Shown: positions 36,191 to 53,064, numbered from the stretch's first letter. The stretch is 64,000 bases of DNA from a virus (IMGVR_UViG_3300041964_000072:1-64000); one strand, 5' to 3'. Numbers and translations are program-made. Notes: a model not told the origin generated them from the letters alone.

Positions 36191-36589
36191 TTATTTTCTT
36201 CTTATTAGTCTAACAAGTCCTTTATTCAATGCGTATTTAACTGCCCCTAATTTTTGGGACACAGGTTTAACAACAGTATCTCGTACTGCCCTTCTTCCTG
36301 CACCAGCTTTACGTCCTAAAGGAGTGTTCCCTATTTTATTTTTTACACCAATTCCTGTTAATATAGCTGTTTGTCCTGCCCTAGTATTAGCTGCTCTATT
36401 TACCCAATAGGCTGCACCAGTACCTATTAATCCTGCTTGCAATCCTTTCTGGACATCTAATGAATAGGTTGTTTTGCCAATCTTGGCTCTAGGATTGTTT
36501 CCGTGTCCATAGTAATAAGTTTTCCCGTTGATTGTTGCACTATTGCGCCTAGAGAAAGCAGCTAAAGATTCTTGATAAGAGTATTTCAT
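36191..36589 (-). CDS. Basic Gly-rich [AS]xF-family protein
   Basis: SLAAF|SRRN; GLQAGLIGTGAAYWV; K/R-rich. Confidence 0.7.
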   Translation of the reverse strand: MKYSYQESLAAFSRRNSATINGKTYYYGHGNNPRAKIGKTTYSLDVQKGLQAGLIGTGAAYWVNRAANTRAGQTAILTGIGVKNKIGNTPLGRKAGAGRRAVRDTVVKPVSQKLGAVKYALNKGLVRLIRRK

Positions 36590-36603
36590 AAATAATGATT
36601 AGG

Positions 36604-36780
36604 CTATCGGCTAGCCCAATCTATAATACGGTTGCCAAGTCCTATTCCAGCAAGATTTACGTTCCTACGTCTTGACTTTTTAGCACCAATGATCATTGGA
36701 GATTTCTTGAATTTCATAGGAGTGCTATTGAACCTCAAAGAACTGCTGCGACCTTTGGCAAAAGTGGAGTAATAATTCAT
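36604..36780 (-). CDS. 58-aa basic [AS]xF-family protein (not in ORF track)
   Basis: MNYYSTF|AKGRSSSLRFNSTPMKFKKSPMIIGAKKSRRRNVNLAGIGLGNRIIDWASR. Confidence 0.6.
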   Translation of the reverse strand: MNYYSTFAKGRSSSLRFNSTPMKFKKSPMIIGAKKSRRRNVNLAGIGLGNRIIDWASR

Positions 36781-36786
36781 AGGTAA

Positions 36787-37056
36787 TTACCGGAAACGAG
36801 ACAAAAATAACTTACCACGGGCAACGTCTCGTTTGAGATTTGCTTTAAGGGCACCTCTCCGTACATACGTTGCTCCCAATAATCCCGCTCCTGCGATAGC
36901 TCCCCCCACTTTGACAATATTCTTTTTCCGCTGAAGTTCTCCTGGTTTCAAATATCGGACTGTTTTGCTACCTACCCTTACTCTTTGCTTTTTGAGATCT
37001 ACCGATGCAGGACTCTTATAAAAGTCAGCGTGTGCAAGAAATTTCTTTATTAACAT
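36787..37056 (-). CDS. Basic Gly-zipper [AS]xF-family protein
   Basis: HADF|YKS; IVKVGGAIAGAGLLGATYV. Confidence 0.7.
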   Translation of the reverse strand: MLIKKFLAHADFYKSPASVDLKKQRVRVGSKTVRYLKPGELQRKKNIVKVGGAIAGAGLLGATYVRRGALKANLKRDVARGKLFLSRFR

Positions 37057-37064
37057 AGTTCGTT

Positions 37065-37370
37065 TTATTGCGGTATTGCTCCTAAATTAAAGTTGTAGTC
37101 TTGCAAAGCCTGTTCCAAAGCATTATCATACTTAGCCCTTTCTTCATCCGGAGGTGAGGGAGATTCCTTCGGGGAATGCAGCTTGTTGCGATGTTTGATC
37201 GTAACCTCTGCCATAGCATCAATGGTTTGATAATCCAGGGTTTTGGCTAAGTCAAGGGCATTGGGATACAACTCAGTAATTAAAGCAAAATTGTAGGCAA
37301 ATCCATTTAAGCATTCATTTCGCTCACTGCTTTGTGTCGCTCCTCGATCATCTCCCCCAATATCTCGAAA
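37065..37370 (-). CDS. Tail assembly chaperone frameshift extension (gpT-like part of the G-T fusion)
   Basis: The -1 frame from the slippery site is open (FRDIGGDDRG...ELYPNALDL...) and runs into ORF 37065..37271. Confidence 0.75.
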   Translation of the reverse strand, partial: FRDIGGDDRGATQSSERNECLNGFAYNFALITELYPNALDLAKTLDYQTIDAMAEVTIKHRNKLHSPKESPSPPDEERAKYDNALEQALQDYNFNLGAIPQ

Positions 37371-37765
37371 AAATCCAAACCATGTATCACACTTATATAG
37401 CTAGGTGAAAGGCTTCCGGATTCAGGTGTTGTCCATCCTGTTACCTCTGTCGTAGCATCTGTCGTTGTAATAAAGATATGCTTTAAGTCCTCAAAGTCGT
37501 GAATCTTTTCAACATCTAGAGGAATATCATCAACGGTAGGAAGAAGTTTAATTAACTGCTTAATTAGACTCCACGCTTTGCGATTTTTCTTCCTAAAAAA
37601 AGCGCCTATCGCTCCCTTTGATTCAATATATTGAGACAGAAGTTCTTTCTGCAAGTCTGCGACATCATCAAGTTTTATCCAAGCAACAGGCTTGATCATG
37701 CAAATACTTTCGTCGTTATATACAATACGAATTTTGCGCCGATCTTCTGTGAGATTAGCTGTCAT
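37307..37765 (-). CDS. Tail assembly chaperone (gpG-like)
   Basis: Directly downstream of the tail tube; slippery heptamer near the 3' end. Confidence 0.75.
   Translation of the reverse strand: MTANLTEDRRKIRIVYNDESICMIKPVAWIKLDDVADLQKELLSQYIESKGAIGAFFRKKNRKAWSLIKQLIKLLPTVDDIPLDVEKIHDFEDLKHIFITTTDATTEVTGWTTPESGSLSPSYISVIHGLDFFEILGEMIEERHKAVSEMNA
37367..37373 (-). other. -1 programmed ribosomal frameshift site T TTT TTC
   Basis: X XXY YYZ heptamer in the correct frame (GAT TTT TTC). Confidence 0.75.
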
Positions 37766-37837
37766 TTATCTGCAATAGTGAGTGACTGATGTATAGCTCA
37801 GATCTATAAATACTGAGATTATAAGTCAAAAAAGTAA

Positions 37838-38632
37838 TTAGCACACTACGCTAAAATCCGTTTCTAGAAGATCAAAAGCAGTGCATCGACCAGGAGGAGT
37901 AAGCATTGTAAACATCATTTCAAGACCCTCAGCGTTGGCATCCAAAGCATTGTTTGAAGGGTCAATCAATGCGCTTGGAACATGTAAAAGTGTGATTTTG
38001 TTGAGGGAGTTTACGAGGGCACAATCAATAACAACTTCGCCTACAAGAATCTCAGAAATTGTACTGCCTGTAATTGTTGCCGGAATAACAACAGTAACAA
38101 TTTTTCCTACTAGATTGTTACTAAATGCGATCGCTCCATCGGCACCGATCGCAAAGTTATTTAAGGTAGTTCTCCAGGTTGCATGACCTTCAAAAGTGTT
38201 TTGGGTTAGGGGAGTAATGTTACCTGTTTCACTGGTAGATGCATACGCAGTAGCATTAGCAGTGATGCCCTTACCAAGTACATTAGTTCCGGTAGCAGCG
38301 GGAATAATACCACTATCAGGTACTCGTACAATTTTTGGAATTGCCATTTGGAGGGTATCTTTCTCCATCAAATAGCCACCTTGGAAAGCAAAAAGTTCTG
38401 GCTGAACTGACGCAAAAGAAACGGACATTGTAGGCATACGACTGGTCGTATACTTACCCACCAAGACTTGCTCTCCAAGCTCAGAGCGAGACATAATATT
38501 GCGCTGTTCTTGAGGATTGTTCAAAACCATTCCGCTTGGTTTCGGGAAGTTAAATACTAGGTTATCCGCAATCCGACGAATGGAAAGATTCGAGATACCC
38601 TTGAATGATCTGTTCTGAATTAATAAGGACAT
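37838..38632 (-). CDS. Major tail (tube) protein
   Basis: 264 aa, beta-rich; SFKGISNL start; sits between terminator-like and chaperone genes. Confidence 0.75.
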   Translation of the reverse strand: MSLLIQNRSFKGISNLSIRRIADNLVFNFPKPSGMVLNNPQEQRNIMSRSELGEQVLVGKYTTSRMPTMSVSFASVQPELFAFQGGYLMEKDTLQMAIPKIVRVPDSGIIPAATGTNVLGKGITANATAYASTSETGNITPLTQNTFEGHATWRTTLNNFAIGADGAIAFSNNLVGKIVTVVIPATITGSTISEILVGEVVIDCALVNSLNKITLLHVPSALIDPSNNALDANAEGLEMMFTMLTPPGRCTAFDLLETDFSVVC

Positions 38633-38778
38633 TAATGTATTCCTTGTATTAGGAAATTAGTCGATAGGCATGTCCTCCAAAAGACAAAAAAAATAGGAGC
38701 CGAAGTAATACTTCTAGCTCCAAACTGCCACTATAATGTCGAAATATTCAATTGTTAATACTACGTTTATTATATCTT

Positions 38779-39246
38779 TTACTCTTCTATGCTTGTCATC
38801 CAGCGTAAAAAAGGAGTGGTTTCTTGGGTAAAAGAATTATATAAAAGACGGTATTCGGTGTTCTGTGGTAACATCCTCAATTTGTAATCATAGGGCATAC
38901 ATTCTTCATCGAATTGCCAATTGATCAAAGCGTTCATCATGTGATAGTCAATAAAATTTAGTAAACCGGGGACAGCTTTTAGGTGGGGATAAGAAAGGCT
39001 ATATGTAAGTGCAATCATTGAAGTCCGTAGACTAAGATCTCGCTTGTACTGACTACTTAATCTATATAGTTTCAAAACAGGATATTCTGTTAATGGGACA
39101 TTCATGTAATCGGCAGTCATTGTAGTTCGGACTGCTAATATTCCCTTAGTCTTTAAATCTTCCGGAACAGCTTTGTTTAAATAGGTTTTTAAATATAGAG
39201 CAATCTTTTCTAAGGTTTCGTCAACAAGAATATTTGGTACTAGCAT
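38779..39246 (-). CDS. Tail terminator-like protein
   Basis: EYPVLKLYR motif; position. Confidence 0.55.
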   Translation of the reverse strand: MLVPNILVDETLEKIALYLKTYLNKAVPEDLKTKGILAVRTTMTADYMNVPLTEYPVLKLYRLSSQYKRDLSLRTSMIALTYSLSYPHLKAVPGLLNFIDYHMMNALINWQFDEECMPYDYKLRMLPQNTEYRLLYNSFTQETTPFLRWMTSIEE

Positions 39247-39293
39247 AAATAGATTTGTTACTAGGTGTCCAAGTTTCGAGAAACAAATGAAAA

Positions 39294-39779
39294 CTAAACG
39301 GCTACGGCTATGCCATAACTCTCTGGAATTTCACTACTGGAAATATAGTCGAGGCAGAGCATTTCCATTTGATTTACCAGTATTTCATGTAGGTAAAGAA
39401 AGGGACGCAATTCGTCTTGTTCGGGAGCGTATTCTAATGATGTTCCAAAATCTAATCCTGTATCGGTATAAACTAAATAACTGTTGGCTGCATTTTCATA
39501 GATTAAGCTATCTCGTAGCGCTCCTGTGTCAATAAGCTGTTGCCCATTACGACGATTTGGAAATTTAGCAAGGTACGATTCACTAAGTTCTTTCCAGTAG
39601 TACTCCCCTGGATGAGGGTATCCCCCAGTTGAGGTAGTCGGAGATGTTAAAAATCGCTGCTCAATATCTTTTTGAAGTAATTTTACAATTGCTTTTTTTA
39701 GGGTCAGTAAGTCGATACTCTGTAATTTGGCAAGATATTCACGCTGATCGTCCAAGCCTTCAATAGTCAGTTTTAGCAT
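39294..39779 (-). CDS. Virion morphogenesis/neck protein (Mu gpG / HK97 gp10-like)
   Basis: LIDTGALRDSL...GTSLEYA...RPFL signature. Confidence 0.8.
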   Translation of the reverse strand: MLKLTIEGLDDQREYLAKLQSIDLLTLKKAIVKLLQKDIEQRFLTSPTTSTGGYPHPGEYYWKELSESYLAKFPNRRNGQQLIDTGALRDSLIYENAANSYLVYTDTGLDFGTSLEYAPEQDELRPFLYLHEILVNQMEMLCLDYISSSEIPESYGIAVAV

Positions 39780-40146
39780 TACGGATTACTTGAAGTTCTG
39801 TTTCTGAGAAAGTGATGGCATCTAATAAGTCAGGTAATAAGTCAAATACAATCTTATCTTTTCGCTTGCGATTGCTTTTTCCTTCCTCCAGAAAAAGGTT
39901 GTGATAGGAAGTGAGTAAGTCCCGTCGCTTAATTTTTTCTAGGAGGGATACCGGAATAATGTGAGATAAATCCGTAGTATCGTTGAGGGACAGTGTTTTT
40001 TTAGTAACTGGACATTGATAGCGCTGTAGTCGTAACAAGAGAGCTTTAAGTTCAAAACAGGCTGTCGATTTCTTGAAACTGGCGAATTGCTGGCGATATG
40101 TTTGCTTGAATTCTGAATATTCTTCGTTGTCCATGACAAGCATCAC
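39760..40146 (-). CDS. HNH-like endonuclease (zinc ligands largely absent)
   Basis: CPVT...DLSHIIPVS...HNL...SNRKRKDK. Confidence 0.6.
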   Translation of the reverse strand: MMLVMDNEEYSEFKQTYRQQFASFKKSTACFELKALLLRLQRYQCPVTKKTLSLNDTTDLSHIIPVSLLEKIKRRDLLTSYHNLFLEEGKSNRKRKDKIVFDLLPDLLDAITFSETELQVIRNAKTDY

Positions 40147-40172
40147 TAAATGATGTTGTATTGGTCAAACAT

Positions 40173-40589
40173 TTAGAAATTATCAGTAGAACTTGCAATC
40201 GTAGTATATCCGGCAGCTCCTACTCCTCCGGCAACAGCGGCTCTACGCCCATACTTTATACCTCTTTGCTTCCAAGTTATTTTAGGGTTTGCAGCAGCTT
40301 GCATCTGTCGAGCAGTCCGAATTTTCCGGATGTTCTTAAGTCGCTTCATAGCTCCTTTGCTTGCTGTTACCGTCCTTAATCCCGTTTTAAGTTTTACTCC
40401 TCCTTGGGAGGCGAGTGTACCGACAGGAGTATTTAGTGTTCTGGCAAGATTTCTGCTACCTGTCATCCTTCCAATTTTGGTAACAGCCTTTCCCAAGAAT
40501 TGACGACCAAAGGCATATTCTGCGTACAAATCATCGGACTGAGCAATTGTGAATTCTGATAGTAAAGCGGGGGATGATAGGGGCTTCAT
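40173..40589 (-). CDS. Basic Gly-zipper [AS]xF-family protein
   Basis: LLSEF and YAEYAF near the N-terminus; RRAAVAGGVGAAGY. Confidence 0.7.
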   Translation of the reverse strand: MKPLSSPALLSEFTIAQSDDLYAEYAFGRQFLGKAVTKIGRMTGSRNLARTLNTPVGTLASQGGVKLKTGLRTVTASKGAMKRLKNIRKIRTARQMQAAANPKITWKQRGIKYGRRAAVAGGVGAAGYTTIASSTDNF

Positions 40590-41173
40590 TACAATGGCAT
40601 CTCCTGCCCAAGCTGTCTATTATGTGAATTGAATGGATCGTCAAAATCAATTATTTTAGGATCTAATCTCCGAGTTCCAATTACGGTGTTCGCATTAATC
40701 CCGATGTTTGGTCTTTGCCCTTGAATCTGAGTTTCCCCAGGTAGCAGGATGGCTTGAATATGCATTCGTTCCTTTGGTTCTAAGGGAAGTCCAGGGATTG
40801 CAACCGGAAGGGGATAGGTGAGGCAGCGAATGAATTGATAAGCGTCCATTCGCAGAGCAGCGACTATTGGGCTATTCGCATCCATCCCAGCGTGAGGAAA
40901 ATGCGCTACTAATAAGTCAGCTATTGTCAAATTGTCAACTATTTTTCTTAAGATAGGATGCTCAAAAGCAAGTGGTACAACATAAACCAGGCGTAAATAA
41001 ATATCGAGTAAATCTTCTGCTTCCTCCAAAATCTCGGTAAAAAATAAATCATTCACATCCTGGGAAATAAGCATTGGATTGTTTCCGCCAAAACCTCCCC
41101 CCATAAATGCGAGTCGAGATTGTAGCTTGCTTTGAATAGATTCAAGAGTTGTATAGCGAGGAATATAAGACAC
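40589..41173 (-). CDS. Head-tail adaptor (Mu gp36/DUF1320-like)
   Basis: YTTLESIQ...EEAEDLLDIYLRLVYVVPL...ILRKIVDNL pattern. Confidence 0.7.
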   Translation of the reverse strand: MSYIPRYTTLESIQSKLQSRLAFMGGGFGGNNPMLISQDVNDLFFTEILEEAEDLLDIYLRLVYVVPLAFEHPILRKIVDNLTIADLLVAHFPHAGMDANSPIVAALRMDAYQFIRCLTYPLPVAIPGLPLEPKERMHIQAILLPGETQIQGQRPNIGINANTVIGTRRLDPKIIDFDDPFNSHNRQLGQEMPL

Positions 41174-41505
41174 TACCGAAGCAATGATTTGATACGGGAA
41201 GCCGTTTCTAAGCCATCCCTACGCTTGCGATTGGAGCCTTTATATCTTGCTCCTGTAATGTCTCTACCCAAGTTAATTAATCCTCGTAATTCTCGTACAG
41301 CCGAAGCAGTAGGCGAGACATAGTTGCGAAAGGCTTTGCTTCTTAACTCAGTTTCTCGTATACGAACAGATGTCCTAGGTTGTTGTCTATCTTGCTCTTG
41401 CTTTCTGTTTTTTAAGGCTAGACTAATTTTTTTGCGAGTGACAGGAGATTGGGAGCGTCCTCGACGCTTCTTTTTTGTAAATTCAGATAAAAGATTCATG
41501 TTCAT
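41173..41505 (-). CDS. Basic [AS]xF-family protein with NUMOD3-like motif
   Basis: LLSEF|TKKKRRG; SPVTRKKISLALK. Confidence 0.7.
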   Translation of the reverse strand: MNMNLLSEFTKKKRRGRSQSPVTRKKISLALKNRKQEQDRQQPRTSVRIRETELRSKAFRNYVSPTASAVRELRGLINLGRDITGARYKGSNRKRRDGLETASRIKSLLR

Positions 41506-42197
41506 TAGCGCTTCCTCTTGCGTCCATCACGGACACCCCGACGAACTCCATAGGTAGCGGCTCCAAGTATTGTTCCCTTTATCGCTCCATCAATTCCCCC
41601 AATCGCTGCGGCTGCTGGTATGACGGCTGGAATGGGGGATGCTGCTAGAGCGGATAGTGTTCCCCCTCCTACTGCTCCATACGTTGCCCCTTTCGCAATG
41701 TGACCCCCAAGGGAAAGTTTGCGCTTCCAGCTCAATCGTCCAGGCGACTGCTTTCCACGTTTACGACCTGTATCACTGCGCTTTTTCCTGAACTCAGAAA
41801 TAAGACTAGGATTTGCAGAGTAGTTTCCCCCAAGCACACCTCTTACCCTTCGTGTAACAGGTAGGTCACGCCTCCGGTTTATGGCGAGATCGGCACCAAC
41901 AGTCATAGATGCGACGGTAGCAGCAGGAAGAACAACAGCAGCGGCACGATGACTCCCTTCTCTGGTCAGTGCTTTTACAGCAGCTCTATCCCCTGCATTT
42001 TTAAAATAGTTCGGTAAGTAGCCTCTCCGGACTAATGCCCGTGAACCTAAAGCCCCTGCTGCAATCAGTCCACCACCAACCGCAATTTGAGTACCACGCT
42101 TGGCAATGCCTCCAGCAGTATTAATCGCTGTTTGATACTTGCCTCTCTTTTTTCCTTTATCTCTTCGGGTACGCCGAAATTCTGATATTGAGTTCAT
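41505..42197 (-). CDS. Two-unit basic Gly-zipper [AS]xF-family polyprotein
   Basis: ISEF|RRTRRDKGKKRGK and internal ISEF|RKKRSDTGRKRGK, each followed by Gly/Ala hydrophobic segments. Confidence 0.75.
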   Translation of the reverse strand: MNSISEFRRTRRDKGKKRGKYQTAINTAGGIAKRGTQIAVGGGLIAAGALGSRALVRRGYLPNYFKNAGDRAAVKALTREGSHRAAAVVLPAATVASMTVGADLAINRRRDLPVTRRVRGVLGGNYSANPSLISEFRKKRSDTGRKRGKQSPGRLSWKRKLSLGGHIAKGATYGAVGGGTLSALAASPIPAVIPAAAAIGGIDGAIKGTILGAATYGVRRGVRDGRKRKR

Positions 42198-42454
42198 TCA
42201 TTTAGCAGTAATACTCCGGTTTTTAAATCTTCCAGTTCAGTAAAATTCTTAGTCGATTGGGAATATCGGATTAGAGAATTTTCTCTAAATTCGTCAGGAT
42301 AATAATTACAGTAGTTTTGCAAATAATCGCTCAATTGATCAAAAGGGATTTCTATAAAGGCTTTGTTTTTAATGACAAATAGTTTGTCCCTAATTACATG
42401 ATAAATGTTTTTAATAATTCCGTTTTCAACGATTGCGACTTTGACGCTCATCAA
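42194..42454 (-). CDS. Hypothetical protein
   Basis: 86-aa ORF overlapping both neighbours. Confidence 0.55.
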   Translation of the reverse strand: MMSVKVAIVENGIIKNIYHVIRDKLFVIKNKAFIEIPFDQLSDYLQNYCNYYPDEFRENSLIRYSQSTKNFTELEDLKTGVLLLNE

Positions 42455-43679
42455 TCCAGTCCACCATACTTTTAGCCTGATCGTAATTGTATTTATAGAT
42501 TACTTTTTTCCGCTCCAAGTTGAGCAGTGCTTGTTGTCGCTCATACGGACTGGTCTTGCTGCCTAAAGCTTGTTCAAAATAATAGTCCAGTTTTTGACTT
42601 ACCCGTTCTGGAGGTTCTTTGTCAACGATGGTTTTTAGGGTATTTTTGAAAACATTGAGGTTTCTTCGCTGCCTTGGGGTAAAGGCTTCCAGTTCATTAT
42701 CTATTGCCCCTTTTATGCCGCTGAAGTCGTTAGCAAAGTTCAGTGATTCGCCTTGATCAATCAAGGTAAAGCGTCCCTTGTTGTACCAGATGTTATCGCC
42801 ATGCATATCAAAATTTGATGTCGTTAATCCATAAGCCAATATCTTGGATAAATCTGAATTATCTAATGCAGTCCGTATTTTTTCTCCTGCTGCAAAATAC
42901 TTTCCTGTTCGTCTATCTTCTTTAGGGTTAAACTTGAAACTCACATTAAACTTCTTGTTTAATTGCCCTTTTTGGACTGCACTAAATAGGCTTTGACCCG
43001 GAAGGAATTTATGTAGAGAATAAACATTACTACTATTCGTTAAAGGATGCTTGATTCCTTTTGGAATCAGTATAGTTTCTTGAGTGCGTACTCCAACTTC
43101 TTTAGCCATGTCTGAAAGCAGCGCTTCCGTAATGGGCATATTTATATTTCGTTCATAGCCTAGTCCTAATTTTTGGGCTAGAGGTTCTTTTACTCTAAAA
43201 AGAGAAGAGGCTTTCATAACGTATCTATTCCCTAATCGATCCTTGACAACTCTAGTAAGATTTGCGGATGCAGTTAAGGAAGCATTGGATATTTCCAAGT
43301 TGTCCAAAAAGTCACTTCCTCGAATTTTGCTGTTAGGCAAATCTAGTTTTCCTTGAACCTGTTTCCAGAATCCCTGGACATTGAACGTCTTTCCTTCCCG
43401 CCTACGCTGAAAAGGTTTTATGAATATACGTTTTGTGGTTTCAACTCTCTGGGACTGTTGGATAGCCCCTTCCAATGCTAAAAGTCGTTGTTTGGAAGTA
43501 GCCTTATCAAGACTATCCCCAATAGTTTGTCTCGCCCTATTATTCAGCCTTCCTGCAACAAGACCTATAGCTTTTCGATTTCCTCTAAGAGCCTTTCGGA
43601 ATTTTTTTCTTTTTTGCTGCTGCTTGTATTTGTCTATACGTCTCTGGAAAAAATTCTTGTCCTTTCTACCCAGTATCAT
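42426..43679 (-). CDS. HipA/PI3K-PI4K-like atypical kinase with a basic N-terminal extension
   Basis: RYVMKAS (beta3 Lys), ITEALL (alphaC Glu), NFDMHGDN (catalytic loop), LIDQG (Mg-binding). Confidence 0.75.
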   Translation of the reverse strand: MILGRKDKNFFQRRIDKYKQQQKRKKFRKALRGNRKAIGLVAGRLNNRARQTIGDSLDKATSKQRLLALEGAIQQSQRVETTKRIFIKPFQRRREGKTFNVQGFWKQVQGKLDLPNSKIRGSDFLDNLEISNASLTASANLTRVVKDRLGNRYVMKASSLFRVKEPLAQKLGLGYERNINMPITEALLSDMAKEVGVRTQETILIPKGIKHPLTNSSNVYSLHKFLPGQSLFSAVQKGQLNKKFNVSFKFNPKEDRRTGKYFAAGEKIRTALDNSDLSKILAYGLTTSNFDMHGDNIWYNKGRFTLIDQGESLNFANDFSGIKGAIDNELEAFTPRQRRNLNVFKNTLKTIVDKEPPERVSQKLDYYFEQALGSKTSPYERQQALLNLERKKVIYKYNYDQAKSMVDWIDERQSRNR

Positions 43680-43681
43680 CG

Positions 43682-44107
43682 CTACCCTCCTTTGTATAGA
43701 GGGTATTTAATAGGTAAAGGATTTCCCGTCGAAAGCCGTGCCCAGCGCTGCCGAACTGCGTTTATATCTTTTCTCGCGTATCTTCCTGTAGCCGTTAAGG
43801 TATTATCAACATAGCGCTTTGCAACACTGATTCGGCTTGGTTTGACTGTACTTACGCTTGCATTAATATTTTTTAATTGTTTTCCAGTGCGACGAATACC
43901 GCTACGCAGCCCCTTGCCACCATACTTCAAGGCAGCGAGAGACGCTGCTCCTAAAACAATGGCTTCTGCTGGATTTATTTTTGCCCAATTTTTGACTCTA
44001 GAAGTTCTGCTCTTTTTCCGATCCCAGAACATTAACTTCCTCTTTACATAGTTGCGTTTAAATTCAGCAAAATCAGGGCTGCTTAATAAAGTAATCGAAT
44101 TATCCAT
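43682..44107 (-). CDS. Basic [AS]xF-family protein
   Basis: DFAEF|KRNYVKRK; AIVLGAASLAALKYGG. Confidence 0.7.
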   Translation of the reverse strand: MDNSITLLSSPDFAEFKRNYVKRKLMFWDRKKSRTSRVKNWAKINPAEAIVLGAASLAALKYGGKGLRSGIRRTGKQLKNINASVSTVKPSRISVAKRYVDNTLTATGRYARKDINAVRQRWARLSTGNPLPIKYPLYKGG

Positions 44108-44378
44108 AAATTTCCTTAAGCGCTTTTCGTTTTATAGGGTTGCGTTCTCTGGAGCGCTGCTGGTATTGCACCTTTGTCGCGTAAAGCCCTCCAAGTCCTC
44201 CTGCCAAAGCTCCCCACTTAGCTGCTCGAATCGGACTACGCTTCCGGGAAAGTGCCCCTAACATTAAAACACTAGCCCCTCCACTACTACCTACAGCAGT
44301 ATTTAACAAGGTTTCTTTGGTACGCCTTGCCTTTTGTGCTTTTCGCTGTGCAAGGCTAAAAGTGGAGAGTAAATTCAC
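44100..44378 (-). CDS. Basic Gly-zipper [AS]xF-family protein
   Basis: LLSTF|SLAQRK; WGALAGGLGGLY. Confidence 0.7.
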   Translation of the reverse strand: MNLLSTFSLAQRKAQKARRTKETLLNTAVGSSGGASVLMLGALSRKRSPIRAAKWGALAGGLGGLYATKVQYQQRSRERNPIKRKALKEIYG

Positions 44379-44446
44379 AATAATAAATTTGAATAATATA
44401 GGTCAGTAAATCTAAGCTTTTACTGATTAGCGATTCAAATAAGAGA

Positions 44447-44908
44447 TTAAACCGTGACGCTACCGTTACCTACCCAGCTTTCGGAACCCTTGATTCGCTC
44501 TTTCACATCATCAATGGATTCAAAGGGCTTCTCTTTCCGCAAAGAGATAATTTTGGGGATATGCTTTTCATCAATCCCCTCGATGGTTTTCAATGTCGCC
44601 TCATCTGCTGTGTTGAGGTTGATTGCCTTTTCCTGGAGCGCTGAAGGAATGAGGTGCTGAGTTTGTTCCTGTGGCGCTACGGGGGTCAACGGCATAGTGG
44701 TGGGATCTTTTGGCAGAGCATCCACTTGATCCGGTGAGCGGACATAAAAGCGGTTTTCCCGAATTTCTTCAGGAAGGGCTTCTTTGGCATAGTCCCCAGG
44801 CAAGTATTGATTTCCGGTTTTTGGCTGCACGTAATGTTTGATTAAAACAACCGTTTCCGGAGTGGGTTCTGTTTTCTTTTCTGTGGTTGGCTGTGCTTGT
44901 TCAGGCAT
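44447..44908 (-). CDS. Protein with a C-terminal ComEA-like helix-hairpin-helix domain
   Basis: INLNTADEATLKTIEGIDEK...IISLRKEKPFESIDDV. Confidence 0.8.
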   Translation of the reverse strand: MPEQAQPTTEKKTEPTPETVVLIKHYVQPKTGNQYLPGDYAKEALPEEIRENRFYVRSPDQVDALPKDPTTMPLTPVAPQEQTQHLIPSALQEKAINLNTADEATLKTIEGIDEKHIPKIISLRKEKPFESIDDVKERIKGSESWVGNGSVTV

Positions 44909-44973
44909 AATGGATTTGATTATTAAAAGGTTTCTACTCTTATTTTAATTGATCAAAAATTATGGAAATCCCT

Positions 44974-45014
44974 ACTATTTAGGGGTCACAGGAATACTGC
45001 AACCCCTAAATAGT
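44974..45014 (-). terminator. 13-bp perfect inverted repeat after the major capsid gene
   Basis: ACTATTTAGGGGT...ACCCCTAAATAGT. Confidence 0.6.
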
Positions 45015-45031
45015 TTAGTTCTAAAAAAGAT

Positions 45032-46228
45032 TTAATTAACGGTCTGAGCGTAGAGTAGCTTGGGATTCAAGAACACGGGAAGAAAAGTCATAACTGTCAA
45101 CGTCTCATCGAGTGGCGGTTGCTTTTGCTTCTCATGAGTGAGGACGTATACGCCTGTTTTTGGCATAGGCATACTGCCGTCACCAACAATAGTAGATGAG
45201 CTTTCCATAGTTACACCAATAGCTCGAATACCCGATTCTTTCTTGATAAATACAAACGTATTGTCGTTAAGGAATCTGGCATTGATGATGTTTTTGTTCT
45301 CATCTTCCAGGTTGTAGCGGTCATCCACAATCTTGATATTAGGAATTCCTCTTGCTTCAAGAATGGAATTCAACATATCAACGGATACCGTTCCTACGGA
45401 CGATCCACGCACAGAAGTCGCTGCATCTTTGGTGGATTTTTGTTGCATCAAATGGTTGTGAAGTTTCCGGGACATAACAATATAGTCCGGAGGAAAACCG
45501 TTTGTGTCTATATAATTGTCGATGGCATTGTAGAGTACTTGGATACCATTTGCATGTTCATAATCCGACCAGCGATTGAGGGTGCCGTCAGCATTTCCTT
45601 TAGCAATTAATGCTCCTGGAAAATGATTATAAGTTGCTAACGGATTCTTATAATCTAGACGTAGATTCATCTGGGTTCGAGGGTCACGACCTAAATCTAC
45701 CCCACCCGTTTGAAGCACTTGCCAAGTCATGCTGTCAGCCCGATCCATTACTGACATTACAAGCTTTTTAACACTTCCAAAAAGGAACATTGCAAGGTCA
45801 TTATTTGCACCATTGACAACATTTCCGTTTGCATCTCTCTGGTCTTGAACTGTTACACCTTTGAGGTTTGCTAGTTGCATCGCCTCGTACATTTGCCACT
45901 GCAAATTCTCATCATAGAGGCGAGAAACACCGATTTTCGCCATCTCTGCGGTGACTTTTTTGAACTCACCAAATCCGACAGTTGGAATCTCTTGTCCATA
46001 GGCAACAAGACTCGCAACAGGATTTACATCATTAGCAAGTAGTCCTAAAAAGTTACGTGAAGAGTACTCCTTTACTGGAGCAGCATCCCCCAAAACATTA
46101 GAGCGAGTACGCAATTGTACAAGTGTTTCGTCTACAATAGCGTCTGTTTGTTTAGATACGAGTCGATCGTTTAAATATGATGCAATTAATGCCATGATTG
46201 AATAGCTTTTTGTATGTTTAAAGCGCAT
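45032..46228 (-). CDS. Major capsid protein (lambda gpE-like); likely start ATG 46195
   Basis: ASLVAYGQEIP, MTWQVLQTG, GFPPDYIVMS...L, FLNDNTFVF, TFLPVF pattern; follows the decoration gene. Confidence 0.85.
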   Translation of the reverse strand: MRFKHTKSYSIMALIASYLNDRLVSKQTDAIVDETLVQLRTRSNVLGDAAPVKEYSSRNFLGLLANDVNPVASLVAYGQEIPTVGFGEFKKVTAEMAKIGVSRLYDENLQWQMYEAMQLANLKGVTVQDQRDANGNVVNGANNDLAMFLFGSVKKLVMSVMDRADSMTWQVLQTGGVDLGRDPRTQMNLRLDYKNPLATYNHFPGALIAKGNADGTLNRWSDYEHANGIQVLYNAIDNYIDTNGFPPDYIVMSRKLHNHLMQQKSTKDAATSVRGSSVGTVSVDMLNSILEARGIPNIKIVDDRYNLEDENKNIINARFLNDNTFVFIKKESGIRAIGVTMESSSTIVGDGSMPMPKTGVYVLTHEKQKQPPLDETLTVMTFLPVFLNPKLLYAQTVN

Positions 46229-46311
46229 TCAAATCACGCTGAGAATAGAGCCTTGGAAGGTTAATTCTTTGGCTCTAAACTAGGCTTTCTATCTCTAAAG
46301 AAACTGAAAAA

Positions 46312-47166: not shown

Positions 47167-47236
47167 AAGTTTAGAGCAAAAAAGAAGGAATTAAAGCTCT
47201 AATTATTGCTTTGCCTATACTTCAATAAAAGGTGGA

Positions 47237-48268
47237 TTAATTAAGGAAACCTTGCTCTTTGTAGAGTTCCATGTTGCGACGGGCTTGCTCCTCAAGGCTG
47301 TCAGAAAACTCAGCCTCTTCATACAGTTCTGGAGATTCATGTGAAAGTTGCCCATTAGGAAAGATTTCACCACGAGAGCCGAGTACCTTTAAAGCGTACT
47401 GGATGCACATTAAATGTGTATCAATGTCCATATCGTTGGACTCAGTAGCGGCTGCAAACAGTCCGATCTTATCTCTATCAAGAGCATCAGGTAAGTCACC
47501 AAATAAAGCATCGAATTCTACAGGAAACATCAACCGTGCTTCAACCATATCTTCGGCATGTTGCACAAGTTCATCAAGCTGATCTTTTACTGCTTGTTGT
47601 ACCTGAAATTCTGCTAGTTGATTCTGTACTTCCATCAACTCGCTACGATATTGAGCGGTTTCGTCGTCTTCAACAAGGACATATTCATCCTCGTCATCGA
47701 ACTCCTCATCACCCATGTCCTCGTCATATTCTGCCTCGAATTCGTCTTCATAATCATCAGAAATCTCGAATAGATCATCGAGATATTCAATTTCATCTTC
47801 TGATTCAGCAAGATCATTACGGGCTTCAAGAGCTAAGGTTTGGAATCCGATATAAGCATCTTCATCCTCTGAAGTAGCTTCAAAGGCAGAAGCTAGTTGA
47901 TCTACCAATTCTGCATCGGGAATAACTTCACCTGTGACCAATGCCAAGATAGCTTCTGGCTCATATCCGGTAATTTCGGATAAGGCGAGGACTCCTTCCT
48001 CACTATCTTCGTATTCCTCTTCAATCAGGCTTCCTAGTGAATGCCCAAAAGCGTTAGTTGCTGTGGCAGTAAATTCGGCAATATTTAGCATAGATTCGTT
48101 AAAATTAATGTCTTCAGGAGGTATTCTTTCGTTTAAATCAGTATGGGCTTGTAGCCGATATTCTTTAGCCGACACTGCATCTAAAATACCCCTTTGCTCA
48201 GCTAAATTGATATTACTTAAAGTTGTGTTGAAAAGTTCTTGATGATATTCTGGAGAGTTGATTTCCAT
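47237..48268 (-). CDS. Acidic scaffold-like protein with an XRE-like HTH segment
   Basis: Extremely D/E-rich, coiled coil, position upstream of decoration/capsid. Confidence 0.6.
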   Translation of the reverse strand: MEINSPEYHQELFNTTLSNINLAEQRGILDAVSAKEYRLQAHTDLNERIPPEDINFNESMLNIAEFTATATNAFGHSLGSLIEEEYEDSEEGVLALSEITGYEPEAILALVTGEVIPDAELVDQLASAFEATSEDEDAYIGFQTLALEARNDLAESEDEIEYLDDLFEISDDYEDEFEAEYDEDMGDEEFDDEDEYVLVEDDETAQYRSELMEVQNQLAEFQVQQAVKDQLDELVQHAEDMVEARLMFPVEFDALFGDLPDALDRDKIGLFAAATESNDMDIDTHLMCIQYALKVLGSRGEIFPNGQLSHESPELYEEAEFSDSLEEQARRNMELYKEQGFLN

Positions 48269-48314
48269 GAATTTCCTATTAATTTAATTTTATTATAATG
48301 AAGCGCTATTTGGC

Positions 48315-48692
48315 TTATTTTGTCTTATTTTTTAGTCTTTTTCTAATCTTATTTGCTGCTGTAGCTCCTAATCCTAAGCCCAATCCAGTGATAGCTAACT
48401 TGCTTTGTAGGGGGGTATTTAGGTTTAAAGCGATTCCTTTTTTCAATGCTCTAGACTGTTTTCCAATATTGCCAACTAGTCGATTATTGAACAATTTACT
48501 CTTACTGCTATCAGCAAATTTTTTTGCAGCTCTTGGAGTTTTTGCTGAACTTAGGATTGGGATTGTTGCCCCTATACCTGCTCCGGTTAACCCACCTAAC
48601 ATTAAGTCCGAAGAGGTTTTTACTGAAGCTGGTATATTACTTTTTTTGTTATCAGACTTTCGTATAAGGCGGAACTCGGAGAGTATATGCAT
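48315..48692 (-). CDS. Basic Gly-zipper [AS]xF-family protein
   Basis: ILSEF|RLIRK; LGGLTGAGIGA; LAITGLGLGLGA. Confidence 0.7.
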   Translation of the reverse strand: MHILSEFRLIRKSDNKKSNIPASVKTSSDLMLGGLTGAGIGATIPILSSAKTPRAAKKFADSSKSKLFNNRLVGNIGKQSRALKKGIALNLNTPLQSKLAITGLGLGLGATAANKIRKRLKNKTK

Positions 48693-48746
48693 GGGGAAAG
48701 TAGATGTGTTATAGAAAAAATCAAACCTTAACCATATCTTTTGAAA

Positions 48747-49295
48747 TTACTTTTTTTGATACATCTTTGCTTTCTTGGCTGCTTCTCTTTGTGCCCGTTT
48801 TGCTGCGGCTTCAGCCTTCTTCTGTTTATTATTCTTGCTCAATAGGGAAGTAGAAGATTTCTTACTGGACGCTGGTGCTACCACGGCTACCGTTGGCTTA
48901 GCTGATGGTGTAGGTTTAGGGGCACCCATAACCATGTTCCAGCCTTTATTCCCCATTGGAGTATTCATAGGAACAGTTCCACCAGGACTGTTACCGAAAG
49001 TCATGTTCCAACCCTTGTTACCTCCCATAGGGACAGTAATAGGAGTTGGAGGAGCCGCTTTTTTGGCTCTCCGACCTATCTTAGAAAGCGCTCCTAAAAT
49101 AGCACCTCTATTTCTGTAGCCTAATGCACCGACTCCGGCTACTCCTCCTACGACACCAGCAGCAGTTATACCTTTGCGAACAGCACGTTTACGTTTATCT
49201 TTCGATCCTTTGCGCCGAAAAAAGTCTGCGTAGGAATCAGAGTATGAGTAAGTTAAGTCAGCCATAATTGCAGTGAATAAATTAATGTATGTCAC
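48747..49295 (-). CDS. Basic Gly-zipper [AS]xF-family protein with two GWN repeats (likely start 49265)
   Basis: YADF|FRRKGSKDKRKR; GVVGGVAGVGALG. Confidence 0.75.
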   Translation of the reverse strand: MTYINLFTAIMADLTYSYSDSYADFFRRKGSKDKRKRAVRKGITAAGVVGGVAGVGALGYRNRGAILGALSKIGRRAKKAAPPTPITVPMGGNKGWNMTFGNSPGGTVPMNTPMGNKGWNMVMGAPKPTPSAKPTVAVVAPASSKKSSTSLLSKNNKQKKAEAAAKRAQREAAKKAKMYQKK

Positions 49296-49336
49296 TACAA
49301 TCTAAGAATTAGTGAAATATGTTTTCTAACTAAGTT

Positions 49337-49750
49337 TTATCGTCCCATCGTGACATTCCAGCCACGATTGCCCATCATGTTATTCATAGATGTAGAAGGT
49401 CTTGCCCCTCCCATTGAAACATTCCATCCTTTAGATCCCATCATTGTATTTGTGGAAGTAGATGGAGGATTTCCACTGGTTCTGTTACTGGGCTTCCCAC
49501 TGATATTAACGTTAGATTTTTTGGAGCCTTTCTTACCTCTTTTCATAGCGTTTCTTGCCTTCCGACCAAGCTTAGAAAGGGCACCAGAAATAGCGCCTCT
49601 ATTTTTATAAGCGGCAACTCCGGCAAGTCCAGCTAATGCACCACCACCAGCGATCCCTACCCCTGTTCGGATATTCCGATTTCTGCGCTGCTTGTCTCTG
49701 GCTCCTTTGGTACGGTAAAAATCTGCGTATGCGTCTGCGTAAGTATACAT
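49337..49750 (-). CDS. Paralogue of 48747..49295 with two GWN repeats
   Basis: YADF|YRTKGARDKQRR; shared NRGAI.GALSK.GR.A. Confidence 0.75.
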   Translation of the reverse strand: MYTYADAYADFYRTKGARDKQRRNRNIRTGVGIAGGGALAGLAGVAAYKNRGAISGALSKLGRKARNAMKRGKKGSKKSNVNISGKPSNRTSGNPPSTSTNTMMGSKGWNVSMGGARPSTSMNNMMGNRGWNVTMGR

Positions 49751-49815
49751 AAGTGATTGTGTGAATAGGTTGATGAATTAATCTAATGGTTGTTATTTAT
49801 CCAAAGGGAATTGTT

Positions 49816-51414
49816 TTATTCCAAGTTTTTATTTTTCTTAGGTCTACCTCGCTTCTTTTTAGGAGCAGGAGCGGGAGCGGGAGGAGTTCCCATAGTGGTA
49901 TTCCATCCACGACTACCCATTTGCATAGGAGCGGGTGCTGGTGTGGCAACAGCTATTGGCTTGGAAGGTGCCCTAGCTGGAGTAGGTGCTGCTGGGGGTT
50001 TACCCATAGTCATGTTCCATCCCCGATTGCCCATAGCCGTAGGAGCGGGAGGCGCTACTGGAGATTGCCCCATATTTACGTTCCAGCCTTTATTCCCCAT
50101 AGCTGTAGGAGTGGCGGGAGCGAGAGCAGCAGGAGCAGCGGGGTTAGCTCTTATTTTGCGTCCTCTTCCAGATGGAGTGCTTTTCTTGCCTCTCAATAAC
50201 TGTTTTCCTCGTACAAGGTCTTTTCGGAGGGTTCGATTAGCCTGGAATCCACCCCCCTTTACTGCATTCGCACCAGCTCCAAGCGAACCAAGTACCCCTG
50301 TCCCCGACTTCCTTGCACCTTGAAAACCTGTTTTTGCTAGTCCTGCTGATTTTGCGATCGCTTTACCAATCCCGTAGCGACCTCCAAGACCGATCGCAGC
50401 AGCTCCCAGTCCTACACCAGCAGCTACTTTTGCAGCATTGCCTACAACACTACTTTTTTTCCTCCGCTGCCACGGAAACTCATAGAAGTCTGCATAATAC
50501 AGATCTTCGATTTCATCCATTGTGAAAGCGGCTAAGACTTGATCATTTTGAGAGAATCTTCCTTGATATGCCATAGGTGAGGGAGGTTGGTTTATAGGGG
50601 TTTGCATCTGTTGTTGCATTTCCTGCTCATAATCAGCATCTCTTTGCAAGGGAAGGTATTCGGGTAGAGTTTCTTGGAATTCGTTTAGCACTTGTTGGTA
50701 GTAGATTTCTCTGCTTTGTCCTTGCAATTCTTGATCAGAGAGATTAGTAATGTTATCTACTACGTCATATAAAGTGTCTAGTAGTTTATGACCTTCCTCC
50801 CTCATCCCATCAAGCTCAGCAGATTCGGCAAGAGCGTCTGATAAAGTCAGTGCGCTCATAAAGTGGGCTAACTGCTCCTTACGCCTGGAAAATAGAGTTG
50901 CTTGAGATAATGCGCCAATCCCTACCAAAGATAACTCTCTGATAACATTTTGGGCAAAATCTACACCACAAGATACTGTTTTTCCAATACCATTTTTAAG
51001 TTTTTGTATTACGGCAGGGTCTTTGATTTTGGCAGCATTACAGAAGATTCCATAACGTCCGATTAAATTTTTTAATTTAGGCTTTTGAGCGACATCATAT
51101 TCATTGATAATCCTAGCTTCCAATGGTTCATCAATAATGCCGACAGCGCTATCAATATCTTTCTGATGTTCCTTAAAAATACTGATGTCGGATTCTTCAA
51201 GAAATTCATTTGTATTCTCTACTATTTCTTGAATATCATCAGCAGTTACAATCCAAGTCCTACCTTTAGAATCCTTGTGTCCGACATCATCGCTTTCATA
51301 AAAAATAAGACCTGACTGGACAAGTTCTTCAGGACTTTCTTCAACAGTAGTAGCAAATGAGGCGCATTGTAATGGTTGTATTTGGGCTACGGGGACGTGT
51401 CTTCGTTTTGCCAT
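49816..51414 (-). CDS. Mu gpI-like prohead protease fused to a basic Gly-zipper/GWN-repeat module
   Basis: GHKDSKGRTWIVTADDI..IVEN...IFKEHQ...AVG...VSCG...ELSLVG N-terminal domain; C-terminal YADF module. Confidence 0.75.
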   Translation of the reverse strand: MAKRRHVPVAQIQPLQCASFATTVEESPEELVQSGLIFYESDDVGHKDSKGRTWIVTADDIQEIVENTNEFLEESDISIFKEHQKDIDSAVGIIDEPLEARIINEYDVAQKPKLKNLIGRYGIFCNAAKIKDPAVIQKLKNGIGKTVSCGVDFAQNVIRELSLVGIGALSQATLFSRRKEQLAHFMSALTLSDALAESAELDGMREEGHKLLDTLYDVVDNITNLSDQELQGQSREIYYQQVLNEFQETLPEYLPLQRDADYEQEMQQQMQTPINQPPSPMAYQGRFSQNDQVLAAFTMDEIEDLYYADFYEFPWQRRKKSSVVGNAAKVAAGVGLGAAAIGLGGRYGIGKAIAKSAGLAKTGFQGARKSGTGVLGSLGAGANAVKGGGFQANRTLRKDLVRGKQLLRGKKSTPSGRGRKIRANPAAPAALAPATPTAMGNKGWNVNMGQSPVAPPAPTAMGNRGWNMTMGKPPAAPTPARAPSKPIAVATPAPAPMQMGSRGWNTTMGTPPAPAPAPKKKRGRPKKNKNLE

Positions 51415-51420
51415 AAGTGC

Positions 51421-53064
51421 TTAAGGTAATGGCACTCGATAGTTTCCCGTGAAAACATTTGGTTTGCTTCGGTGCTTTTGTTTTTTATATGCAGAAAATA
51501 ATACTAAGCTATCTGATTTCAATTCTATATCTTTTATAAGGTTTATGGGGTACTTACTAAACTGTCCTTTACGCTGTTTTTCTAATAATCTTTGTTCTAG
51601 ACTTTTATTTAATTCTTTAATGTCTTTTCTGAGCTTAGCCTGTTTTTCAGCGATTTCTCTTTGAGATAAGGTGTTGCCTTTTCCTACCTCTTTTTCTATT
51701 GTCGCAATCTGTTTTTTGATAGCCTCTTGAGTAAGTTCGATACTCTCTTTTGCTTGAGGTGTTTTTGCTTTTTGTGCGGCAAGTTCTAGATTACCAAGGG
51801 TTCTATCCCAACGAAAAACATCTTTATTGTTTAGTTGTCCTAATTCTTTTCGCTTCTTGACAATATCTTTGTAAATCTGCATTTTTCTGATCATATTACC
51901 TCTCGATGCATTGATCTGTCGGGTAACATTCTCTCGATAATTCCGAGAACGATCATTGATCAGAGGTATAACCGATGCTTTCTCTTTGGCTGTGATTAGT
52001 TTTGTATGCTTTAGCCGATCATGGATAGGTACATCGGATACATACGATTTCAAACCTCTACCCAAACGTCGATATACACCGACACCATCGGTACGGTAGG
52101 AAGCCTCGGATAATAGTTTGCTGTATTTTCGTTTATCATCTTTGGAGATATTGGTCAAATCCATGATCTCCAGATGCTTGTCAAACCCTTGGTCGTAATT
52201 TACATTACCCTTTTTTTGACTTGTTCTGGGTGGGTTTTGTAATGGGTTTCCGCTAACATCTCGGATAATACGTCCTCTGGAATCCCGATAAATATCTGGA
52301 ACGTTCTCATCTAAGGTTTCAAACAATTGATTTGCCTTGGCTTCTAGTTTTTTGGCTTCTGCTTGAAGGGCTTTTCTTTGTCCATAAGTAATGTTTGGGT
52401 CTTGAAGAATATTCCCAATCTCCCCTGCTCGTTCTTGCAGCTCTGATAGTTCCTTACTCAGAACCTTTGTTTTGCCTTCAGGAGTCCTGGGAGTCCGCTT
52501 GGGGGGAGGAGAGATAACTGGAGAAGAGGGGATCGCCTCAATCGCTGACGTAGGGGCAACCGGAGTAGGAGCAGTGCTGACTTCCGGGATCTCGTTTATT
52601 ACCTTTTGGAGGTTCGGGGTAGGCGTACTTGGCGTACCTTTGTTAACTGTAATAATTCGAGGTTTGCCTCTCCTAGCTTTTGCCGCTGCTGGTGCTACAG
52701 GCACTCTAGGCACAGGAGAAGGTGATGGAGGTAGATTTATGGCAGGAGGAGCTGACGGAGGTAAGTTAATAACAGGAGAAGTTACACGCACATTTACAGC
52801 AGGTGTAGGAAGTGCCTGTAGTATCGCTGCGGTTTCTTTTTTTGATACATTCTGCGATCGCCTCAATACCGAAGCGGCTTGTTTGAAGCCCTTTCTGCTT
52901 CCCAGTAAATATGCTCCGGTTATACCTGTTCCGACAAGTCCAGTAACTCCCGCTCCGAGAAGAAAACCCTTTTTTCTGTCATTAGCTCTACGGGAATGTC
53001 TCCTAACAGTAGAAAATCCTTTTCCAGTGCGACGGAGATAGGACTTTACTTCCTTTTTATTCAT
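51421..53064 (-). CDS. Basic motif-TM-Pro-rich-coiled-coil protein
   Basis: EVKSYLRRTGKGFSTVRRHSR; GFLLGAGVTGLVGTGITGAYLLG; Pro-rich linker. Confidence 0.75.
   Translation of the reverse strand: MNKKEVKSYLRRTGKGFSTVRRHSRRANDRKKGFLLGAGVTGLVGTGITGAYLLGSRKGFKQAASVLRRSQNVSKKETAAILQALPTPAVNVRVTSPVINLPPSAPPAINLPPSPSPVPRVPVAPAAAKARRGKPRIITVNKGTPSTPTPNLQKVINEIPEVSTAPTPVAPTSAIEAIPSSPVISPPPKRTPRTPEGKTKVLSKELSELQERAGEIGNILQDPNITYGQRKALQAEAKKLEAKANQLFETLDENVPDIYRDSRGRIIRDVSGNPLQNPPRTSQKKGNVNYDQGFDKHLEIMDLTNISKDDKRKYSKLLSEASYRTDGVGVYRRLGRGLKSYVSDVPIHDRLKHTKLITAKEKASVIPLINDRSRNYRENVTRQINASRGNMIRKMQIYKDIVKKRKELGQLNNKDVFRWDRTLGNLELAAQKAKTPQAKESIELTQEAIKKQIATIEKEVGKGNTLSQREIAEKQAKLRKDIKELNKSLEQRLLEKQRKGQFSKYPINLIKDIELKSDSLVLFSAYKKQKHRSKPNVFTGNYRVPLP

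Follow-up and report, generated by a model that had tools for sequence, protein, structure and literature searches.

What is the role of a short peptide ending in phenylalanine that opens about a dozen otherwise unrelated, strongly basic proteins encoded among the head genes of an uncultured phage? We studied this for the viral sequence IMGVR_UViG_3300041964_000072, of which a stretch of 64,000 nucleotides (the window) was analysed, i.e., the first 64 kb of a linear IMG/VR viral contig of 132.7 kb (CheckV completeness estimate 65%). For positions 36,191 to 53,064, a preliminary description had proposed a capsid-cargo system of at least 12 basic glycine-zipper proteins that share an [AS]-x-F processing or targeting motif and are cut by a Mu-I-like protease of the phage. 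We find its observation partly confirmed and its interpretation partly supported. That is, the N-terminal leader carrying the motif is a real, conserved and undescribed feature, which recurs in related phages, where unrelated basic head-module proteins, the protease and the scaffold carry it and where it also marks internal boundaries between modules. Our favoured reading, a Phe-specific prohead-protease site combined with a targeting leader on packaged basic proteins, is given a probability of roughly 0.55.

The motif itself was recovered as reported, i.e., the expected tetrapeptides are present in all eleven listed genes as well as in the C-terminal part of the protease. Bare [AS]-x-F is not enriched: 231 occurrences are observed and 232 are expected from composition (210 open reading frames (ORFs) on the 132.7-kb contig). 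Because the bare motif thus occurs at chance frequency, its copies inside the MuF-like minor head protein, which had been put forward as further evidence, add no evidence by count. Enrichment is seen for the longer, N-terminal form. The pattern [LIVMFYH][AS][EDTA]F is found within the first 30 residues of 13 ORFs; 300 shuffles gave 2.9 such ORFs on average and at most 9. Such a leader is carried by 12/29 ORFs at 35.7-55.5 kb (head and neck genes) vs. 1/181 elsewhere, for which the Fisher p-value of 5.6e-11 is inflated because the regular expression was picked after the listed instances had been seen; independent support comes from the recurrence in relatives. The codons of the motif vary among the copies (TCA/TCT/TCC, GAA/GAG, TTT/TTC), so conservation acts at the protein level. 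A DNA-level repeat or a start-context artefact is ruled out by these codon differences, by the internal copies and by the retention of the peptide in relatives.

The leader-bearing proteins of the window are the following:

36191..36589, minus strand: basic protein of 132 residues, leader up to F12
36604..36780, minus strand: basic protein of 58 residues, leader up to F7
36787..37056, minus strand: basic protein of 89 residues, leader up to F12, with tail chaperone-like genes on one side and the tape measure gene on the other
40173..40589, minus strand: basic protein of 138 residues, leader up to F13, C-terminal Gly/Ala stretch at residues 117-135
41173..41505, minus strand: basic protein of 110 residues with 28% Lys plus Arg (K+R), leader up to F9, without a long hydrophobic stretch
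41505..42197, minus strand: two-module basic protein of 230 residues, site at F7 and again at F136, with a basic core and Gly/Ala-rich sequence after both
43682..44107, minus strand: basic protein of 141 residues, leader up to F16
44100..44378, minus strand: basic protein of 92 residues, leader up to F7, uncharged Gly/Ala stretch at residues 23-44
48315..48692, minus strand: basic protein of 125 residues, leader up to F7, Gly-rich uncharged stretch at residues 30-50
48747..49295, minus strand: basic protein of 182 residues, leader up to F25, then basic core, Gly/Ala stretch and GWN repeats
49337..49750, minus strand: basic protein of 137 residues, leader up to F11, then basic core, Gly/Ala stretch and GWN repeats
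39760..40146, minus strand: uncertain extra member of 128 residues (isoelectric point (pI) 8.8), site at F13, start codon doubtful, no family match
63787..64000, minus strand: C-terminal part of a DUF5754-like protein (63787-64194 on the contig), whose N-terminus, past the window end, has the leader and a basic core

The label "basic" is well deserved, given that all of the first eleven proteins in the list have a pI of 11-12 and a K+R content of 17-28%. The two units described for 41505..42197 are also present, with a basic block and Gly/Ala-rich sequence after F7 as well as after F136. The description as glycine zippers is true in part: an uncharged Gly/Ala-rich stretch of at least 17 residues is found in 6/11 genes and in the protease tail, and is missing from the other members. 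Only one gene exceeds a Kyte-Doolittle 19-residue mean of 1.6 and the others are mostly below transmembrane grade. Pfam Gly-zipper models (e.g., PF13441 Gly-zipper_YMGG) gave no match to ten window members at E <= 1 and a single match (E = 0.0024) among 60 relatives.

Similarity beyond the leader is limited within the window. BLAST-detectable paralogues are 48747, 49337 and the protease tail only (E 1e-15 to 1e-31), to which 36787..37056 adds a weak similarity to 48747 (E = 8e-5). Recent paralogy as the full explanation of the shared leader is thereby ruled out; members other than 48747, 49337 and the protease tail have only leader and composition in common. Pfam and PHROGs provided no significant match for the window members, no homology to the T4 internal protein (IP) families was found, and a word-index search of 5.8 billion proteins yielded no homologue of 49337. 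Each small protein has a gene of its own and none is fused to MuF, as would be the case for MuF-associated polymorphic toxins or polyvalent cargo.

The hydrophobic stretches with their basic flanks could also be taken as a sign that the small basic proteins are not packaged at all. The common N-terminal signal would then belong to late non-structural proteins directed to the membrane, e.g., for lysis, superinfection exclusion or as membrane-anchored assembly helpers. In line with this, the ESM Atlas model of 41505 shows a weak, sub-threshold resemblance to small helical membrane proteins (template-modelling score (TM) < 0.5), family members of the relative L012 adjoin an M15 peptidase gene, and the DUF5754-like member of the window is encoded outside the head cluster. 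On the other hand, the member genes are interspersed among head and neck genes, which they frequently overlap by 1-2 bases, and the prohead protease itself carries the module as a fusion. Furthermore, strongly basic flanks around a marginally hydrophobic stretch would be ill-suited to ordinary membrane insertion, and the analogues in the phage Pam2 (see below) are virion proteins. We thus regard this explanation as distinctly unlikely.

Some observations concern individual members. For 48747..49295, the true start is probably Met11, and the database version (P0094) has 172 residues. The gene 48315-48692 is wholly overlapped by a plus-strand ORF of 138 residues (48298-48714) that a naive longest-ORF picker prefers; it is probably spurious and no gene. 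The basic region of 41173..41505 shows weak matches to homing-endonuclease linker PHROGs (phrog_655 with E = 0.018, phrog_314 with E = 0.028). Presumably, this region resembles a NUMOD3-type DNA-binding motif. The DUF5754-like gene lies next to a 254-residue gene at 64182-64946; the basic core at its N-terminus is that of 41505, and leader-bearing DUF5754 homologues are found in the relatives L005 and L009. An 11-residue repeat, M-G-x-[KR]-G-W-N-x-x-M-G, is present in seven copies within Pro/Ala-rich linkers of 48747-49295, 49337-49750 and the protease tail (49819-50100). It is considered lineage-specific because the protease tails of L005 and L011 are without it, and could be a capsid-interior binding peptide.

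To assess the leader outside the window, we used related phages. Scanning IMG/VR with the single major capsid protein (MCP) found no relatives; they were obtained via MCP homologues in the protein database, which led to contigs of ~120-140 kb whose head modules were examined. MCP identity to the window phage is 63% for L004, 51% for L005 and 39% for L009. In L004, L005, L009, L010 and L011, the leader is found on many head-module proteins, including DUF5754 proteins and proteins without a basic core. The signature in L004 and L005 is a leader of 0-14 residues ending in [AS]-x-F, followed by a basic core (consensus A-R-T-K-G-A-K-D-K-K-K-R-K in the relatives) and a Gly/Ala-rich stretch. It is located at N-termini, at internal boundaries of multi-module proteins of 270-591 residues and at the start of the C-terminal protease tail. 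In L009, a leader composed of M, 2-3 hydrophobic residues, [SAC], [DE] and F heads seven proteins, most of them core-less and one a DUF5754 protein. The occurrence on core-less proteins implies that leader and cargo body are separable.

For a broader view, a profile of 19 modules (A3; leader, core and Gly stretch) was searched against 1.84 billion representative sequences. At E <= 1e-3 it matched 246 proteins, of which 23 reached E <= 1e-10, most matches beginning within the first dozen residues. A profile built without window sequences still finds 49337 (E = 1e-11) and 48747 (E = 6e-10) and does not find 41505. The three genomic contexts sampled (L010-L012) belong to the same phage clade or to a phage context. 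Whether the family had been described before was among the questions raised by the preliminary description; neither Pfam nor PHROGs covers the leader-core-Gly family, since no model matched more than 1/60 profile hits. Within the top 149 hits, the basic core was located in 124 proteins at 158 sites, which show the following composition relative to the proposed cleavage point:

position -4: mostly L, I, Y or V
position -3: A at 61 and S at 37 sites
position -2: mostly E, N, D or T
position -1: F at 138 sites, Y at 5, initiator Met at 9
position +1: A at 128 sites

The count at position -1 is biased towards Phe since the profile included the leader columns. This bias does not account for the nine leaderless cases in which the initiator Met takes this position. 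Leaderless genes in L005 and L007 start precisely at +1, with in-frame stops 1-7 codons upstream. Within the window, residue +1 is R, K, Y or F in several proteins, where most relatives have Ala. That cleavage would expose residues of the bacterial N-degron classes and make ejected copies short-lived is pure speculation.

The co-conservation of Phe and the following basic core at 138/158 sites would also be expected if the leader were never cut, i.e., if it were an uncleaved docking or folding element or simply the conserved N-terminus of a repeat family that evolves fast. Phe and basic core would then form one unit, e.g., for DNA or scaffold binding, and the multi-module proteins would be tandem duplications. 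There is a precedent in the 80alpha scaffold, whose Phe-ended N-terminal sequence is needed for assembly while its cleavage is dispensable (PMC5744158). Such a unit is difficult to reconcile with the many leader proteins that have no basic core (40173, the L009 set and the DUF5754 proteins) or with cores that are found leaderless, beginning exactly at +1. Together with the protease boundaries described next, this makes an uncleaved leader unlikely in our view, if still worth serious consideration.

The protease gene comprises the following parts:

49816..51414, minus strand: prohead protease polyprotein of 532 residues, composed of leader-like site, protease domain, acidic helical linker and cargo-type tail
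50860..51354, minus strand: protease domain (residues ~21-185), bracketed by the Phe-ended sites F20, F173 and F185
49819..50484, minus strand: cargo-type tail after F310, basic, Gly-rich and with GWN repeats, paralogous to 49337 and 48747

Residues 1-194 were modelled with AF2 (mean pLDDT 67, core ~80), and the model was compared to PDB representatives by an exhaustive VIA-align search. The top match is T4 gp21 (5JBL) with Z 9.6 and a root-mean-square deviation of 3.1 Å over 127 residues, followed by the varicella-zoster virus protease (Z 4.8) and unrelated chains (Z <= 3.8). This structural alignment bears out a prohead protease adjacent to the basic genes, predicted to have the T4 gp21-like fold. 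The narrower assignment to the Mu-I family was not upheld at the level of Pfam: hmmscan gave no PF10123 match for the window protein and six relatives. A profile search of PDB sequences produced no match either. An HHpred assignment to Mu-I has been published for the homologue in PA-SR01 (PMC10286775), which shares 28% identity with the window protease. The residues H83, S148 and E160 are invariant in 7 relatives. They match what we take to be the His/Ser(/Glu) active site of the gp21 fold.

Phe-ended sites are a stable feature of this protein. F185, which follows the domain at a distance of 10-12 residues, is invariant in 7/7 proteases (alignment A1); an L-F/Y-then-S site ends the domain (~residue 173) in 6/7, PA-SR01 having H after F; and x-x-F precedes the first strand by 15-20 residues in 7/7. 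Fusion of the protease to a cargo-type tail is observed in the window phage, L005 and L011, and the tails of the latter two open with a leader site. The protease sites are also present in lineages without the basic family, i.e., L006, L007 and L008 retain Phe-ended sites on both protease and scaffold. That the same site marks the domain boundaries argues against an uncleaved leader, given that autoprocessing is usual in this fold, as for the SPN3US protease (PMC10052503). In L007, the protease is split into ORFs of 198 and 96 residues.

Similar sites are found in the scaffold:

47237..48268, minus strand: acidic scaffold-like protein (pI 4.1), Phe-ended sites ahead of the conserved NxFG block and ~25 residues from the C-terminus

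The N-terminal Phe-ended leader, ahead of the first conserved block, is present in 7/9 and the C-terminal Phe (~25 residues from the end) in 6/9 sequences (alignment A5).

A Phe-ended site may alternatively be cut by a protease of the host. The capsid and scaffold proteins of 80alpha are cleaved between F and A by Prp, and the combination of Phe-Ala, basic residues and Gly observed here resembles the Firmicutes Prp/L27 site (PMC5744158). The window phage encodes its own gp21-fold protease, and the domain of that protease is bracketed by the very same sites. A Prp match (PF04327) was missing at E <= 1 in the 132.7-kb contig, a search that covers the phage contig only. Cyanobacterial L27 is also not known to carry the extension, which we count against a host protease. 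A host enzyme is thus a highly unlikely explanation.

Among isolates, the Pseudanabaena siphophages Pam2 and PA-SR01 come closest, with an MCP identity of only ~32%. Both encode Gly-rich multi-module proteins between protease and scaffold, which show R-K-[SA]-A-[NE]-F at their N-termini and internal boundaries. In Pam2, gp15 and gp17 are such motif-bearing, Gly-rich proteins and positional analogues of the window members. Virion mass spectrometry detected both alongside the MCP and neck proteins, and did not detect the protease gp14 and the scaffold gp18 (PMC9382816, Table S2).

Given these data, our favoured reading can be stated as follows. The gp21/assemblin-fold protease (49816-51414) would recognise a hydrophobic residue followed by [A/S], [E/D/N/T] and Phe, and cut after the Phe with a small residue at P3. 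This site terminates an N-terminal leader of 6-25 residues on a dozen unrelated, very basic small proteins; the same site divides the modules of multi-module proteins, brackets the protease domain and heads the scaffold. By analogy to T4 capsid targeting, the leader would bring the basic proteins into the prohead core, alongside the protease and the acidic scaffold. The mature basic proteins, many of which combine a conserved basic core with a Gly/Ala-rich hydrophobic segment, would be freed by cleavage and remain in the head with the DNA, and some of them may exit with it at infection. For the window phage, cleavage after Phe, a targeting role and packaging are what we infer. Judged by composition only, the simplest idea for the function of the mature proteins would be charge neutralisation of the packed DNA; a membrane activity is possible and weakly supported. 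The most economical reading of the relatives is a clade-wide signal used on protease, scaffold and a variable, fast-evolving set of basic proteins.

Several points weigh against this reading. The mapped proteases of the gp21 fold (T4, phiKZ, SPN3US) cut after Glu and not after Phe. Neither Pfam nor PHROGs assigns the window protease to a family, and Foldseek found no match for it in the PDB. The MCP has neither a leader nor such a site, and the C-terminal site of the scaffold is missing in 3/9 relatives. Since most members have only leader and composition in common, some of them could be chance ORFs or be differently employed. The third Gly-rich protein of Pam2, gp16, was not detected in virions (PMC9382816, Table S2). 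The proteins of Pam2 and PA-SR01 are ruled out as homologues of the window family (E > 0.3), and the Pam2 virion data thus provide support by analogy only. The post hoc choice of the regular expression and the leader columns of the profile, introduced above, belong on this side as well.

How such a system would relate to known ones can be seen from T4, in which a 10-residue capsid-targeting sequence marks internal proteins that enter the head in hundreds of copies and are ejected (PMC9958956). In both cases, unrelated, mostly basic head-core proteins (putative ones here) have a short N-terminal leader in common (in T4: the non-essential IPI, IPII, IPIII and Alt, processed by gp21), their genes are located in the head module and the protease is of the same fold (Z 9.6 to 5JBL). 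In contrast to T4, the window proteins show no sequence homology to the internal proteins, and the proposed P1 residue is Phe instead of Glu. Furthermore, the putative cargo is far more numerous, modular and often Gly/Ala-rich and hydrophobic, and has one copy fused to the protease.

The inner-body and ejection proteins of the giant phages phiKZ, 201phi2-1 and SPN3US are cut after [S/A/G]-x-E by a gp21-like protease (for SPN3US gp245: after A-x-E), and would share with the present system numerous or paralogous head-internal proteins, N-terminal propeptides, multiple sites and an autoprocessing protease (PMC10052503). The small P3 residue is also found here (A or S at -3 in 98/158 sites), whereas Glu at P1 is replaced by Phe (138/158 sites). 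The leaders are shorter as well (6-25 vs. mostly 111-254 residues), the proteins are small and extremely basic, and the genome of ~130 kb is not that of a jumbo phage. Adenovirus offers a functional analogy for charge-neutralising core proteins only, given that virus lineage, protease and sequences are unrelated: its core proteins pVII, pre-Mu and pVI, which are matured in the capsid by the adenoviral protease, are likewise highly basic, associate with DNA and are taken up as precursors that are then cut at short consensus sites. The Prp/80alpha/L27 system agrees in a leader of ~9-14 residues that ends in Phe, is followed by Ala and basic residues and is found on non-homologous structural proteins (PMC5744158). 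It differs in that Prp is a cysteine protease of Firmicutes hosts, whereas the protease here is phage-encoded, predicted to be serine-type and of the gp21 fold, with no Prp gene in the contig.

A more far-reaching version, which we consider rather improbable, takes the head to be packed with diversifying leader-tagged basic proteins, some enzyme-fused, that form a membrane-active, ejected core, with P1 Phe being new for the fold. As further parts of the same improbable whole, the fusions would be kinases and lipase-like hydrolases, the Gly/Ala-rich segments would confer membrane activity, and the core would act on the host envelope by breaching or remodelling it. Lipid might even be associated with the virion, since chloroform sensitivity is reported for PA-SR01 (PMC10286775), an observation that by itself proves nothing about lipid.

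The fusions in question are enzyme-like bodies on basic or hydrophobic N-termini in cargo slots, which we observe at 42426-43679 (minus strand), L007:16045-16917, L005:4864-6060 and L007:18192-20219. A RIO1/Pkinase domain in a cargo-slot protein of L007 scores above the Pfam cut-off, the cutinase/lipase-like matches in L005 and L007 proteins are under it, and a Phe-ended leader is present in the L005 enzyme-fusion protein. This hints at delivered enzymes. For the protein at 42426-43679 (417 residues), a kinase identity was rejected, since neither Pfam nor BLAST against the L007 kinase gave a match.

Should the leader prove to be a genuine signal for targeting and cleavage, it would represent a new substrate specificity (P1 Phe) for the gp21/HK97/assemblin protease fold. 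It would also provide a simple sequence rule that predicts the packaged proteome of an uncultured clade of ~130-kb phages, which includes relatives of bloom-relevant Pseudanabaena phages, and a compact tag of 6-14 residues to load foreign proteins into capsids, similar to the T4 targeting sequence. The rule marks candidates for delivered effectors, i.e., the kinase-like and lipase-like fusions, as well as a family of proteins, so far undescribed, that numbers at least 246 cluster representatives. Because the related phages Pam2 and PA-SR01 are in culture, the hypothesis is directly testable.

The genes discussed are part of an uninterrupted head-to-tail module on the minus strand at 28.8-55.5 kb, to which the following also belong:

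53069..55144, minus strand: MuF-like minor head protein (phrog_115, E = 5.5e-9) with a long C-terminal extension, in which Pfam and PHROGs recognise no domain
51421..53064, minus strand: basic protein of 547 residues with basic N-terminus and Gly-rich uncharged stretch, without leader
45032..46228, minus strand: MCP (phrog_29, E = 3.9e-26; PF03864)

The 547-residue protein fills the slot between MuF and protease, which contains cargo genes in relatives, and its N-terminus is homologous to L011 8987-9727. Beyond the protease, the gene order continues with three small basic genes, the acidic scaffold-like protein, a 284-residue protein and the MCP. The true start of the latter is probably Met12, downstream of the longest-ORF start (database version: 387 residues). 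Directly after the MCP gene, a ComEA-like helix-hairpin-helix (HHH_3) protein is encoded (44447-44908, minus strand), a position that is kept in L004-L009; a role as a head protein that binds DNA is conceivable. Further small basic genes follow, interspersed with neck genes, one of which is weakly Mu gp36-like. The module also holds a tube-like gene and a tape-measure-like gene of 2264 residues; TerL is located at 57710-59293.

Taken together, these genes suggest a tailed phage of ~130 kb that is distant kin of Pam2 and PA-SR01, and from this relatedness it appears to be siphovirus-like. A cyanobacterial host is a guess because the MCP similarity to the Pseudanabaena phages is the sole link. 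Among the relatives, intein or homing-endonuclease insertions are found in TerL (Intein_splicing in L007, LAGLIDADG in L006) and, for L007, also in MuF; the regions concerned are L007:1-955 and 2803-5634 and L006:325-3036.

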